Shown one piece after another: positions 13,531-45,007 of a stretch of 64,000 nucleotides of DNA (positions are counted from its first letter, which is position 1; each line of letters opens with the position of its first letter). The stretch comes from Patescibacteria group bacterium (GTDB taxonomy: Bacteria > Patescibacteriota > Patescibacteriia > Buchananbacterales > UBA6539), in assembly GCA_041662625.1 (NCBI GenBank), contig JBAZSB010000001.1, positions 617,385 through 681,384 on the forward strand, in the 5' to 3' direction. The notes below the pieces were generated by a model. It was given only the letters and a program-made list of their open reading frames with translations. It ran no database searches and was not told the DNA's origin. Both the position numbers and the translations under genes were made by a program.

Positions 13531-13555
13531 GTCCCGACCTTTCGGGACTTTTTGT
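13531..13555. terminator. hairpin + U-tract (GTCCCGA palindrome family), bidirectional-looking
   Basis: tttttttGTCCCGAcctttCGGGACtttttg; A/T runs on both sides. Confidence 0.5.
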
Positions 13556-26012: not shown

Positions 26013-26096
26013 TGAGTTATTAGCCCGGGTGGCGGAATTGGTAGACGCGCACGACTCAAAATCGTGTGGACTTCGGTCCATGAGAGTTCGATTCTC
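26013..26096 (+). tRNA. tRNA-Leu (anticodon CAA)
   Basis: GCCCGGGTGGCGGAATTGGTAGACGCGCACGACTCAAAATCGTGTGGACTTCGGTCCATGAGAGTTCGATTCTCTCCTCGGGCA; long variable arm; no CCA. Confidence 0.85.
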
Positions 26097-26173
26097 TCCT
26101 CGGGCATAAATTGACACCTTTGACACCTAGCGAAAAATGGATTATCATAAGGAAGTTAATTACTTATATTCGA

Positions 26174-26248
26174 CGCGGGATAGAGCAGTAGCAGCTCGCC
26201 AGGCCCATAACCTGGAGGTCGGGGGTGCAAATCCCCCTCCCGCAACCA
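26174..26248 (+). tRNA. initiator tRNA-fMet (anticodon CAT)
   Basis: CGCGGGATAGAGCAGTAGCAGCTCGCCAGGCCCATAACCTGGAGGTCGGGGGTGCAAATCCCCCTCCCGCAACCA; C1:A72 mismatch and A11:U24 typical of bacterial initiators; 3' end ...CCCGCAACCA like E. coli tRNAfMet. Confidence 0.8.
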
Positions 26249-26275
26249 AGAAGTATTTTAGATAATTCAATGAGA

Positions 26276-26404
26276 CCAGGCCCATAACCTGGAGGTCGGG
26301 GGTGTCCCGACGCACATTATTTGTAATATTAATAAAGAAGTCGGGATCCCGATGATATTTAGAAATAAATTAAGGAATCGGGACAAATCCCCCTCCCGCA
26401 ACCA
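26276..26404 (+). pseudogene. partial duplicate of tRNA-fMet (anticodon stem to 3' end) carrying an ~80-nt structured insertion in the T-loop
   Basis: ccaggcccataacctggaggtcgggggtg [tcccgacgcaca...gtcgggatcccgat...aatcgggac] aaatccccctcccgcaacca; no 5' acceptor or D-arm upstream; insertion bounded by GTCCCGAC / ATCGGGAC inverted repeats. Confidence 0.7.
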
Positions 26405-26405
26405 A

Positions 26406-26482
26406 GGCGAGGTAGCTCAGTTGGTTAGAGCGAAGGAATCATAACCCTTAGGTCGTGGGTTCGACTCCCACCCTCGCTACCA
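26406..26482 (+). tRNA. elongator tRNA with CAT anticodon (tRNA-Met or tRNA-Ile2/lysidine)
   Basis: GGCGAGGTAGCTCAGTTGGTTAGAGCGAAGGAATCATAACCCTTAGGTCGTGGGTTCGACTCCCACCCTCGCTACCA; G1-U72, CCA encoded. Confidence 0.8.
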
Positions 26483-26600
26483 AATTTAGTTAATTTTAGC
26501 AAAAATCCCTCCAGACAGGGGTTTTTTATTGCTTGATAAAAAATTTTCTGTTAAAATTAAAGATATAGACTAATAATTATTTTAGAGTGAAAAATTATTT

Positions 26601-39413: not shown

Positions 39414-39802
39414 GGGGATGTCTAAAATCGATAGGATCTAGATTTAAAGTCCTCAGGTCGAGCATTGGTCTACTTGGCTCGCTAATCTCAATGACCAAAC
39501 AAATAAGTGCCAAATCACTTGTCGCTAAGGTAAAAAGTGCTTTCAGCTCTTTAGCCTTAGCTCCCGCTTTGGCCTAAAAACCCAGAGCCATCAGCCCGGT
39601 GATGCCTAATAGCCGGTCCCTGGTGTCAATAATTAGGCTGCCGCAAGTTAATGCCTCATTGATTTGCATAAGCACTTGAGGCTTTGGCTTTTGGGGTTTT
39701 GTCAGTTTTTGACCCAAAGGCCGAAAATAAAAATTGACTAAACCTGTAAAACTATTTTGAATCTAATTCTAGACAGGGGTGCAAATCCCCTCATCTCCAC
39801 CA
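39414..39802 (+). ncRNA. ssrA: tmRNA (ssrA)
   Basis: 5' GGGGATG... pairs with 3' ...CATCTCC-A-CCA giving G3:U70 (Ala identity); T-arm GGGG-TGCAAAT-CCCC; internal tag frame ...AFSSLALAPALA-TAA ending 39577; immediately downstream of smpB. Confidence 0.8.
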
Positions 39803-39807
39803 CTCGA

Positions 39808-39862
39808 CTCGTCCCGATTTATCGGGACTCGCTCGTGGTGCCTCGAATTTGGCAAGAGGCAC
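39808..39862 (+). other. two hairpins in the tmRNA 3' trailer (GTCCCG-atttat-CGGGAC; GTGCCTC-gaatttggcaa-GAGGCAC)
   Basis: Perfect 6-bp and 7-bp stems; no U-tract, so possibly processing/stability elements. Confidence 0.45.
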
Positions 39863-41174: not shown

Positions 41175-41197
41175 ATTACAATAAAAAATTCCACAGC

Positions 41198-41244
41198 GGA
41201 GGCGTACCCGCCCGCTTCGCGTTCGGGCAAGGCTCAGTTGGTTA
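41198..41244 (+). pseudogene. tRNA-Asp 5' fragment (acceptor 5' strand + D-loop) interrupted by a GC hairpin insertion
   Basis: GGAGGCGTA [cccgcccgcttcgcgttcgggcaag] GCTCAGTTGGTTA then diverges; preceded by ttccacagc, which is the reverse complement of gctgtggaa at 41686-41694. Confidence 0.6.
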
Positions 41245-41271
41245 TCTCTTTAAAAAAATAAAGTGCAAAAC

Positions 41272-41345
41272 GGAGGCGTAGCTCAGTTGGTTAGAGCGTC
41301 TGCCTGTCACGCAGAAGGTCGTGGGTTCGAGCCCCATCGTCTCCG
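41272..41345 (+). tRNA. tRNA-Asp (anticodon GTC)
   Basis: GGAGGCGTAGCTCAGTTGGTTAGAGCGTCTGCCTGTCACGCAGAAGGTCGTGGGTTCGAGCCCCATCGTCTCCG; flanked by aaagtgcaaaa / ctttgcacttt inverted extension; no CCA. Confidence 0.85.
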
Positions 41346-41395
41346 CTTTGCACTTTATTTTTTATTATCCAAAAGCCAATTATAAAATTAGGGGG

Positions 41396-41510
41396 GTCAC
41401 GCAGATTTACCCGCCGTAGCGCAAGCATAGGCGGGAGGTCGTGGGTTCTGCGCCACCTTAATTAATAAAAAAGGCGCACCAGCCTCTGGCTGGGAGCCCC
41501 ATCGTCTCCG
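41396..41510 (+). pseudogene. tRNA-Asp 3'-half copy with two GC-hairpin insertions (after anticodon stem and in T-loop)
   Basis: GTCACGCAGA [tttaCCCGCCgtagcgcaagcataGGCGGG] AGGTCGTGGGTTC [TGCGCCaccttaattaataaaaaaGGCGCAccagcctctggctgg] GAGCCCCATCGTCTCCG + ctttgcactttatttttt. Confidence 0.6.
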
Positions 41511-41542
41511 CTTTGCACTTTATTTTTTATTATCCAAAAATC

Positions 41543-41685
41543 GAGGGTTCGCCTGCCCCGCCCTAAGTCTTTAACCAAAAGACTAAATACTCATTTAAAG
41601 TAAGGCGTCAGCCGTTTCCGAGAGATTAAGTTAGAATACTAAATTTACTCTTTCGGACTTAGGGCGGGGAGCCCCATCGTCTCCG
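41543..41685 (+). pseudogene. tRNA-Asp T-arm/acceptor 3' copy with a ~110-nt insertion bounded by 14-bp inverted repeats (MITE-like)
   Basis: GAGGGTTCG cctg [CCCCGCCCTAAGTC ... GACTTAGGGCGGGG] AGCCCCATCGTCTCCG ctgtggaa. Confidence 0.6.
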
Positions 41686-41877
41686 CTGTGGAATTTTTTT
41701 TGTTAGCCAAAAGCGTCTGCCTGCCTGCACCGCCATTACTATCAACCCAGCCACCCCAAAAGGGCGGTTTTTAGTTAATCCCGATATGTATTTACTACGC
41801 CCTGGAAGCCACTTGACAAAAAATGCTATTCCATTATACTAAATAATACCACCTAAATAATAATTGAATATTGGAAT

Positions 41878-44740: not shown

Positions 44741-45007
44741 TTCTCGTTCCTCCTCTCGTTGTAACTATCCTGTAATTACGAAAAGTCTGCCCTAATTTCG
44801 CCCAACAAAGGCGAAACCGACCCATCAATAAGAATAGGAATTCAATAAAAAATTACTACTTTAATGATAGTTTGTCAATTCAATGCCAAACTAGACGATT
44901 TCTGTCTACCTGCCCTGGCCTGCCGGCAGGCAGGCTTCTTGGCTCGCCATCTGGCGGCTAGTGGGGTATACTTAATATATAAGCGTATTACCGATTAAAT
45001 TGAATCT

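Follow-up and report, generated by a model that had tools for sequence, protein, structure and literature searches.

A palindrome-split remnant of the initiator tRNA gene in a Patescibacteria genome and a recurring pattern of nested tRNA genes

Background

The free-standing GIY-YIG homing endonuclease gene segB, located in the tRNA cluster of phage T4, is among the closest described counterparts of the locus presented here (PMC2330249). The 27-bp site of the SegB enzyme contains the T-arm motif GGTTCRANTCC, many tRNA genes are cut by it near their 3′ ends (PMC2330249), and the enzyme drives segmental amplification around tRNA genes (PMC13096335). The subject of this study is a 64,000-nt stretch of a Patescibacteria group bacterium genome (assembly GCA_041662625.1, contig JBAZSB010000001.1, positions 617,385 to 681,384 of the forward strand; hereafter the window), in which an intact initiator tRNA gene (tRNA-fMet) is followed by a partial copy of itself, whose T loop is split by a double-hairpin (DH) element. 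GIY-YIG genes lie among tRNA genes both in phage T4 and in other genomes that harbor DH copies, and the DH element splits exactly the T-arm motif of the SegB site. SegB is, however, a phage protein with a defined 27-bp site, while the open reading frames (ORFs) associated with DH are chromosomal, encode 80-107 amino acids and comprise the catalytic domain only. Neither palindromic inserts nor nested old and new tRNA copies have been described for SegB, and a SegB-like element requires a nuclease ORF at the locus, whereas the 64-kb window is without one.

The minimal GIY-YIG proteins of the UPF0213/Slx1-like type (PDB 1YWL and 1ZG2) are regarded as probable repair or structure-specific nucleases (PMC1564403, Dunin-Horkawicz et al. 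2006). The DH-adjacent ORFs match these by sequence and are of the same single-domain size. This family has no known mobile behaviour or linkage to tRNA genes, whereas the DH-adjacent ORFs lie within tRNA genes that are duplicated, and a TAG of the tRNA often serves as their stop. In the tRNA 3′-end duplications that the integrases of genomic islands and prophages generate (attL/attR), too, the 3′ portion of a tRNA gene is repeated in the same direction next to the intact gene. Here, however, neither an element nor an integrase separates the two repeats, a hairpin breaks up the duplicate, other loci have 5′ fragments ahead of intact genes, and the duplicated pieces are often too short for att sites.

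Small palindromic mobile repeats include the REP/BIME sequences with their RAYT, the small dispersed repeats of cyanobacteria, the Rickettsia palindromic elements (RPE), the double-hairpin elements of fungal mitochondria and GC clusters. With these the DH element shares short hairpin units, single or in tandem, which are multi-copy, lack an ORF and occupy tolerated loops of RNA genes. It is set apart by its strong preference for tRNA-derived DNA, its co-occurrence with GIY-YIG genes and a core conserved across phyla, and we know of no sequence similarity between DH and families of the REP/BIME, RPE or GC-cluster type. Structured inserts at D-loop, T-loop and junction positions are furthermore a feature of archaeal non-canonical introns and split or permuted tRNAs and of bacterial rRNA intervening sequences, and the leader/trailer complementarity of a tRNA-Asp locus in the window recalls the archaeal split and permuted genes. 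In contrast to these, the host is a bacterium (a tmRNA gene is present), essential halves are missing, an intact copy is adjacent and no bulge-helix-bulge motif is present at the DH inserts. A full-text literature search of incomplete coverage turned up only SegB and the general classification of GIY-YIG proteins. It found no published description of the DH palindrome family, on which earlier work may exist, of GIY-YIG genes of UPF0213 type in fusion with tRNA genes, or of nested tRNA genes with hairpin-laden remnants.

A split remnant of the initiator tRNA gene

The region at 26249-26405 of the window is a non-functional leftover, namely a 5′-truncated copy of tRNA-fMet (nt 26-75, in the linear numbering used for all pieces of this gene) whose T loop is split by the 79-nt DH element. 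The features of the locus are:

26023-26106: tRNA-Leu(CAA) (ARAGORN and Rfam)
26120-26148, plus strand: promoter-like site TTGACA-17-TATCAT, 5′ of tRNA-fMet (consensus scan only)
26174-26248, plus strand: tRNA-fMet(CAT), intact initiator gene with CCA encoded, the functional copy (ARAGORN; Rfam tRNA, 56.9 bits)
26249-26275, plus strand: AT-rich spacer of 27 nt, AGAAGTATTTTAGATAATTCAATGAGA, leading from the intact gene to the fragment
26276-26304, plus strand: piece A of the dead copy, exactly tRNA-fMet nt 26-54 (blastn, 29/29; repeat family D2)
26305-26383, no strand assigned: DH element, 79 nt (sequence, folding and homologous copies elsewhere)
26384-26404, plus strand: piece B of the dead copy, exactly tRNA-fMet nt 55-75, C56 through CCA (blastn, 21/21)
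26406-26482, plus strand: tRNA-Met(CAT), of elongator Met or Ile2 type (ARAGORN; Rfam tRNA, 66.9 bits)
26501-26526, plus strand: terminator-like hairpin and T run, 3′ of tRNA-Met (consensus scan only)

The 3′ segment of tRNA-fMet forms a direct repeat of 50 nt, 100% identical and in two blocks (blastn), in agreement with a first-pass annotation of this DNA, which had described a partial copy from the anticodon stem to the 3′ end behind an intact initiator gene. The latter displays the two bacterial initiator traits named in that annotation, the C1xA72 mismatch and the A11:T24 pair (A11:U24 in the RNA), and its anticodon stem (CCAGG/CCTGG) has two of the three consecutive G:C pairs usual for initiators. 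Piece A contains the anticodon arm with CAT, the variable loop, the 5′ strand of the T stem, T54 and G55. Piece B is separated by a single A from tRNA-Met(CAT), the native downstream neighbour of the old tRNA-fMet 3′ end, and the same 1-nt fMet/Met junction is present in another of the fetched loci (L005). The predicted cluster of CAT anticodons is likewise present, though with two genes and one CAT-loop fragment instead of three genes.

The insert lies in the T loop between G55 and C56 and is bounded by inverted repeats, as had been noted, its length being 79 nt rather than the 80 nt first given. Hairpin 1 (26305-26346; TCCCGAC..GTCGGGA) and hairpin 2 (26347-26383; TCCCGAT..ATCGGGA) each have a stem of 7 bp and abut at the perfect palindrome TCGGGATCCCGA. 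The flanks, GGGGGTG and CAAATCC, show no target-site duplication, and the joined junction, AGGTCGGGGGTG/CAAATCCCCCTC, matches the intact tRNA-fMet gene 87 nt upstream at 24/24 positions. The fragment is predicted to fold at -42.1 kcal/mol as RNA (z = -2.97) and at -13.6 kcal/mol as DNA (z = -2.6). A likeness between the acceptor stem (CGCGGGA/TCCCGCA) and the hairpin arms (TCGGGA/TCCCGA) was set aside as a probable coincidence, since the same arms are found in inserts of unrelated tRNAs.

No second copy of tRNA-fMet nt 1-25 could be identified elsewhere in the 64-kb window (blastn), and in silico removal of DH from the fragment yielded no tRNA across the junction (ARAGORN). tRNA-fMet, the fragment and tRNA-Met are predicted to form one transcription unit, bracketed by the promoter-like and terminator-like sites, and a consensus scan found no terminator-like site between tRNA-fMet and tRNA-Met. 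As the fragment within this predicted unit lacks a 5′ half it cannot form a tRNA, and the intact upstream gene supplies the function; the position of the fragment between the promoter-like and terminator-like sites suggests that it is probably co-transcribed and discarded. An intron-bearing tRNA, raised in the first-pass annotation as a competing explanation, was rejected, as was a split tRNA: the insert-bearing copy has no 5′ half, no tRNA emerges when DH is removed and an intact tRNA-fMet gene lies 27 nt upstream. The 27-nt spacer has no counterpart 3′ of the fragment; it is matched by one fetched locus only (L001) and aligns loosely with a 26-nt spacer at the same junction in L018.

The neighbouring genes, which are syntenic with those of relatives, encode RelA/SpoT, ParB, ParA, the tRNA cluster, a YdjM-like protein, an M16 peptidase and a class II aminoacyl-tRNA synthetase. 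Further downstream lies the following feature:

39414-39802: tmRNA gene (Rfam)

The T loop of the intact tRNA-fMet gene reads TGCAAAT, with G at position 55. The T arm GGGGTGCAAATCCCC is common to the initiator tRNA (26222-26236) and the tmRNA (39776-39790), and the T loop they share, UGCAAAU, carries this G at 55 as opposed to the near-universal U. The tRNA-fMet D loop (AGTAGCA) is without the usual GG. G55 is kept in L008, L013, L015, L018 and L114, and L005 reads TGCAATT.

Comparison with related genomes

Syntenic loci of relatives were fetched by means of a conserved downstream gene encoding a 157-amino-acid protein. By these comparisons the host is a Patescibacteria (CPR) bacterium close to Candidatus Buchananbacteria. 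An independent assembly (L001; ENA ERZ27249449) is 99.98% identical over 6.4 kb and agrees with the window at every one of the 652 nt of the intergenic region, so that the arrangement is not a one-off assembly artefact, a concern that the first-pass annotation had itself raised. That annotation had also proposed a search of related genomes for an intact single copy, which was found in the syntenic loci L008 and L114. In both, one tRNA-fMet gene is followed after 17 nt by tRNA-Met, with no fragment and no insert, and the tRNA-fMet gene of L114 is 100% identical to that of the window. This simple state indicates that the fragment and its insert are additions and not ancestral. The exact empty-site allele (uninterrupted tRNA-fMet, 1 nt, tRNA-Met) gave no matches in the JGI metagenomes, and a relaxed empty-site pattern recovered L114 with its 17-nt spacer state.

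T-loop homologues of the DH element are present in the dead tRNA pieces of relatives, namely of tRNA-Leu (L013) and of tRNA-Met and an older tRNA-fMet copy (L010/L018). In L013, an intact tRNA-Leu is followed by the 3′ fragment of a different tRNA-Leu allele, in which the T loop is split between nt 55/56 by a 61-nt homologue of the window insert. Loci L010/L018, which derive from an organism in the same sample as L001, harbor three DH copies within 1.1 kb. The first is inside an otherwise nearly full-length old tRNA-fMet copy, and the second, half-deleted, is in a 3′ tRNA-fMet fragment that starts at the same nucleotide (CCAGG) as that of the window, after a similar spacer. The third is in a 5′-truncated tRNA-Met pseudogene bearing three further hairpin inserts. 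The orthologous fragment in L018 is degenerate, with half of DH gone and extra hairpins present.

Several further observations were made at these loci. In L005 (1640-1910) and L007 (100-320, minus strand), a single nucleotide separates tRNA-fMet from a downstream 5′ fragment of tRNA-Met (nt 1-33); after another 32 nt comes a full tRNA-Met gene, the 5′ acceptor strand of which is altered (GCCGAGG). The full gene of L005 is flanked by 14-nt inverted repeats, CCCCGCACCAAATT, and the 3′ strand of the L007 gene remains matched to the old 5′ strand, with a C2:C71 mismatch that is compensated in L005. A hairpin to which the 3′-terminal 17 nt of a tmRNA, TCCCCTCATCTCCACCA, are directly joined is located between tRNA-Leu and tRNA-fMet in L005 (2010-2090, minus strand), far from any tmRNA gene in that locus. 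Loci L015 and L096 (GCA_964535715.1) are titled ‘uncultured Gammaproteobacteria’, a label that looks wrong, since their gene order and proteins match those of the Buchananbacteria-like relatives of the window.

The double-hairpin family and its sites

GTDB species-representative genomes were scanned with the pattern TCCCGA N20-40 GTCGGGATCCCGAT N3-30 ATCGGGA (27 specified bases), which returned 90 stretches against approximately 0.04 expected by chance, according to our own arithmetic. By record titles these are spread over at least five phyla, with many Patescibacteria lineages, Margulisiibacteriota/WOR-1/Saganbacteria, Omnitrophota, Planctomycetota and Bacteroidota represented, and several genomes hold 5-8 copies. 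Examples of DH-rich species are Buchananbacteria SO_2016_GW1_99 and WOR-1 RIFOXYB2_FULL_42_35. Hairpin 2 agrees at 36/37 positions in two organisms, the neighbouring proteins of which share 63% identity. The window insert matches the core pattern (54-87 nt in total) and is therefore a family member. The wider search suggested by the first-pass annotation thus identifies its ‘miniature hairpin element’ as part of a multi-copy family in several phyla, one that is mobile or copied and builds up in dead tRNA pieces. The loops vary in length (21-38 nt and 6-32 nt) and often extend the stem pairing beyond the core. Single, double and triple hairpin units occur in the fetched loci, and single-hairpin units with DH arms are found as separate inserts in the tRNA fragments of other genomes. 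No match to the DH pattern was found in a viral collection, and no Rfam family was assigned to the insert at the gathering threshold, nor beyond noise at e-values up to 10. A guess that the copies in L025 and L060 lie inside RNase P RNA was not supported, there being no Rfam match.

TCCCGA..TCGGGA hairpins number four in the window against 0.04 expected, and 100 shuffles never gave more than one. They include two single units:

13532-13547, no strand assigned: single TCCCGA/TCGGGA hairpin, TCCCGACCTTTCGGGA, with T runs on both sides
39812-39827, no strand assigned: single hairpin, TCCCGATTTATCGGGA, 10 nt past the CCA end of the tmRNA gene

Both exist nearly as first placed (13531-13548 and 39811-39828), with a stem far above chance, and given this excess they are very probably relatives of DH. 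The former is probably a single-unit relative which also resembles a bidirectional terminator, and the latter is identical to a unit at a Komeilibacteria locus (L069:3835). The flanks of the hairpin after the tmRNA gene (39803-39840; TCGACTC / CTCGCT) are similar to the T loop and the 3′ acceptor portion, respectively, of the tRNA-Met gene at 26406, and this stretch may be another degenerate tRNA fragment, the matches being too short to call. A second palindrome family, CCTGCC..GGCAGG (core CCTGCCGGCAGGCAGG), is intergenic at 44909-44938 of the window. Its 16-20-nt palindrome is also found within tRNA fragments of L013, L010 and L018, where it sits in D loops and T arms, as well as in Saganbacteria, Margulisiibacteriota, Planctomycetota and Komeilibacteria loci.

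The sites occupied by DH were characterized by joining the 12+12 nt around each copy and comparing them with the 136 intact tRNAs of the fetched loci. Matches to a tRNA at 18/24 positions or more were obtained for 39/94 junctions, compared to 0/94 random control positions. Most of the matching junctions fall in the T loop or D arm, with hot spots in the T loop (GGTTC/RA or GGTK/CRA), at the start of the D arm (TAG/CTCAG), in the D loop and in the anticodon region, and all inserts in the window and related loci sit at cloverleaf loop or stem-base positions. Both orientations relative to the tRNA occur. No target-site duplication was found family-wide (0 cases for k = 3-7), and the left flanks are not fixed, showing only a weak W-S/S-W preference that is confounded with conserved tRNA motifs. 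Some DH copies lie in other DNA, namely within a group I intron, within an insertion in 16S rRNA and in AT-rich stretches between genes. Individual examples include a copy within an insertion located after model position ~1386 of a Saccharibacteria 16S rRNA gene (L074, 548-700), one inside a group I intron match (L101, 1306-1613) and one beside a group II intron fragment adjoining a 16S gene (L062, 4555-4750).

Nested tRNA genes

For 24/96 DH copies, the uninterrupted paralogous insertion site is present in an intact tRNA of the same locus, with 3′ pieces located downstream of the intact gene and 5′ pieces upstream; the two halves of an older copy thus enclose the live tRNA gene. Many different tRNAs show this architecture, with duplicated pieces down to 5-14 nt in length and the hairpin always in the dead copy, and a DH insertion in a live single-copy tRNA was never seen among the copies gathered. 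When DH was removed in silico a tRNA was restored in 4/98 cases (ARAGORN), and in all four the same isoacceptor has an intact gene no more than approximately 400 nt away.

The window contains a second example at tRNA-Asp, made up as follows:

41190-41725, plus strand: tRNA-Asp nest, with the intact gene (41272-41346) between old pieces A, B, C and D
Piece A: nt 1-9, hairpin, nt 10-22
Piece B: nt 34-43, hairpin, nt 44-56, two hairpins, nt 57-73
Piece C: nt 46-57, 118-nt hairpin, nt 58-73
Piece D: nt 24-35

The outer old gene (A and C) encloses the inner old piece B and the intact gene, so that the nesting is present twice over. The old pieces are identical to the live gene except for one mismatch in piece C, and pieces A-C are interrupted by unique GC-rich hairpins at 9/10, 43/44, 56/57 and 57/58. 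The leader of piece A and the trailer of piece C form a 22-nt inverted repeat, and the intact gene has a 26-nt leader/trailer inverted repeat. The resemblance to the tRNA-fMet insert proposed in the first-pass annotation therefore extends to the phenomenon but not to the sequence, the tRNA-Asp hairpins being of other families. We infer that the tRNA-fMet fragment is a local instance, without an ORF, of this recurring architecture of nested tRNA genes with hairpins in the old pieces.

Small GIY-YIG genes near double hairpins

Only one protein family, a GIY-YIG protein of 80-107 amino acids, recurs within 500 nt of DH. Its ORF lies no more than 300 nt from DH in 13 loci, approximately 14 times the density in the rest of the same loci. 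At L018, two small ORFs between the old and new tRNA copies both encode GIY-YIG proteins (Pfam PF01541; e-values: 2e-18 and 2e-14), and a small GIY-YIG ORF is present at the equivalent locus of L018 and L064 and in at least 12 other DH loci. In many loci of nested architecture the gene, of Slx1/UPF0213 type, stands directly before the intact tRNA. A same-strand intact tRNA begins within -25 to +16 nt downstream of 13/18 GIY-YIG ORFs, and seven of the 18 overlap the following tRNA and stop at a TAG inside it, either at U8-A9-G10 (four loci: L031, L052, L064 and L072) or within the D arm (three: L036, L048 and L109). In the last of these, a Chitinophagales locus not selected via DH, the order is an old 5′ fragment whose D loop holds a 20-nt hairpin, the GIY-YIG ORF and an intact tRNA-Arg. 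By sequence, the ORFs are closest to UPF0213 (1YWL and 1ZG2; e-values: 7.5e-5 and 6e-3) and then to SLX1, and so fall in the minimal prokaryotic Slx1-like branch and not in the I-TevI/Seg branch.

A four-helix-bundle protein (TIGR02436; e-value: 1e-24) is encoded 28-285 nt from DH in L045, L046 and L096; we take this to be the ‘23S rRNA intervening sequence protein’ family. Many GIY-YIG homologues are located on contigs of less than 2 kb, and repeated tRNA pieces seem to break short-read assemblies.

Origin of the remnant

The pattern described above combines nuclease-associated tRNA-gene invasion with small palindromic repeats. On balance we favor the view, with some confidence, that the tRNA-fMet fragment is the scar of such an invasion, produced by a nuclease-made break, repair and palindrome spread, a mechanism that we infer from the comparisons above. 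A small nuclease would make a break in tRNA-gene DNA, the repair of which would restore the intact gene and leave a partial duplicate behind. Palindromes would then be copied among dead pieces by break-induced gene conversion across the conserved T-arm and D-arm sequences, which would explain the presence of the same element at the same structural position in tRNA-fMet, tRNA-Leu and tRNA-Met fragments. They would persist only where no essential single-copy tRNA is destroyed, insertion into a live single-copy tRNA presumably being lethal. A T-loop hairpin splits the motif needed by a SegB-like enzyme, and also divides the homology with the live gene into blocks of 29 nt and 21 nt; either of these would lend the scar stability. 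More speculatively, the insert sites, at loops and stem bases, are those where extruded hairpins would be likely targets of a structure-specific enzyme of Slx1 type.

Several points weigh against this explanation. No GIY-YIG ORF or remnant thereof is present in the 64-kb window (tblastn; hidden Markov model search of all stop-to-stop frames, E > 0.8), approximately 85% of DH copies are without a GIY-YIG ORF nearby, and the old 5′ piece expected under simple nesting is absent at the tRNA-fMet locus. The nuclease is small and has no DNA-binding domain, which, together with its likeness to UPF0213/Slx1 rather than to SegB/I-TevI, makes its site-specific cleavage of tRNA genes hypothetical. The orientation of DH varies relative to both the ORF and the tRNA, arguing against DH as the fixed cis-acting end of a nuclease element. 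The copies were gathered with an exact-stem pattern, which makes for a biased sample in which the stems are fixed by the pattern. The co-occurrence of GIY-YIG genes and DH could furthermore be indirect, nuclease elements making the dead copies in which hairpins accumulate independently.

A transposase acting in trans is moreover a serious rival. DH could be a non-autonomous palindromic transposon, akin to miniature inverted-repeat transposable elements (MITEs) or REP sequences and moved by, for example, an IS200/IS605- or RAYT-type enzyme working on single-stranded DNA hairpins. It would target hairpin-forming DNA such as tRNA arms, the partial duplications being separate and merely tolerant sites and the GIY-YIG link coincidental. 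The occurrence of DH as a multi-copy family in several phyla, with variable loops and single, double or triple units, is consistent with this, as are its presence in introns, rRNA insertions and intergenic DNA and the fact that most copies have no nuclease gene nearby. IS200/IS605-type insertion also leaves no target-site duplication. Of the traits of that group, however, the DH loci display the hairpins and the missing duplication but no fixed left flank or consistent 5′ target tetranucleotide, and no transposase family recurs near DH in the fetched loci. The DH stems of 6-7 bp with long loops are unlike the end hairpins of the IS608 type, and the roughly 14-fold enrichment of GIY-YIG genes next to DH would have to be fortuitous. 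We regard this explanation as rather improbable, though deserving of consideration. A MITE of the DDE type was rejected, since terminal inverted repeats of 6-8 nt are present and target-site duplications absent.

The first-pass annotation had compared the duplicated segment with an integrase attB site. The duplicate would in that case be the relic of an integrative element inserted into the initiator tRNA gene by a tyrosine integrase, with the 50-nt repeat as attL/attR block, the element deleted to 27 nt and the hairpin a later arrival in the spare att site. A repeat that runs from the anticodon stem to the 3′ end does fit the size and position of tRNA att identity blocks, which Williams reportedly described in Nucleic Acids Res. 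in 2002, and the copies are exact. Only 27 nt lie between the repeats, however, no integrase and no foreign DNA are present, the neighbours are housekeeping genes in synteny with relatives, and a phage origin is at odds with the lack of DH matches in the viral collection. At many tRNAs the layout is found again with a left piece of just 5-14 nt, and 5′ fragments upstream of intact genes, as seen elsewhere, are not produced by integrase att sites. The attB comparison is as such not borne out, and this origin is very unlikely.

The chances that the fragment and hairpin make up a functional RNA are about as slim. Such an RNA might act as a tRNA-like decoy, for instance for an anticodon nuclease or a toxin of the VapC type that cleaves initiator tRNA; it might serve the processing or stability of the fMet-Met transcript; or it might be one half of a tRNA that is split or bears an intron. 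Its location in a predicted transcription unit with no terminator ahead of it, its intact anticodon arm, the 100% identity of its pieces to the live gene, a predicted fold more stable than that of shuffled sequences and the confinement of inserts to cloverleaf loop or stem-base positions would all be compatible with function. Yet the fragment is missing from syntenic relatives, including L114 with its identical tRNA-fMet gene, no 5′ half is present in the window, and the orthologous fragment of L018 is degenerate. DH occurs in both orientations, and an intact copy stands beside each DH-bearing copy that is restored by DH removal. A functional decoy or processing element is therefore unlikely. 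A mis-joined repeat in the assembly is scarcely credible, for although two Logan contigs of the same strain (L002 and L003) stop within tRNA-Met (window positions 26436 and 26455) and show that assemblers do break here, the independent ENA assembly agrees throughout the intergenic region, and the insert is unique in sequence and has homologues at the corresponding sites of other genomes.

Conclusions

Invasion of the tRNA gene followed by repair and palindrome spread remains our preferred explanation of the tRNA-fMet fragment, which, as a local feature, likely has no function and represents junk DNA beside an essential gene. The significance lies in the pattern and its three parts: palindromes that mark dead tRNA pieces in at least five phyla, nested intact tRNAs, and minimal GIY-YIG genes that front tRNAs. 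As a tentative and bolder proposal, which we hold to be possible rather than probable, the small GIY-YIG genes of Slx1/UPF0213 type may constitute, together with the nested tRNA copies and the palindromes of TCCCGA type, an unrecognised class of selfish elements of bacterial chromosomes. The nuclease, being structure-specific, would cut hairpin-forming tRNA arms and the element would survive by carrying or regenerating an intact tRNA behind its ORF, with a tRNA-internal TAG as stop, the palindromes being cis-acting or immunity-conferring companions that spread between phyla by horizontal transfer. If true, this would be the first biological role for a large protein family of unknown function.

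Should the three parts be mechanistically linked, SegB-type homing at tRNA genes would extend from phages to bacterial chromosomes, and a function would be suggested for the UPF0213/Slx1-like proteins. Such a link would also explain the frequent assembly breaks at tRNA genes in candidate-phyla genomes, and would warn annotators that the tRNA-like fragments of such genomes are scars, and not split or intron-bearing genes.

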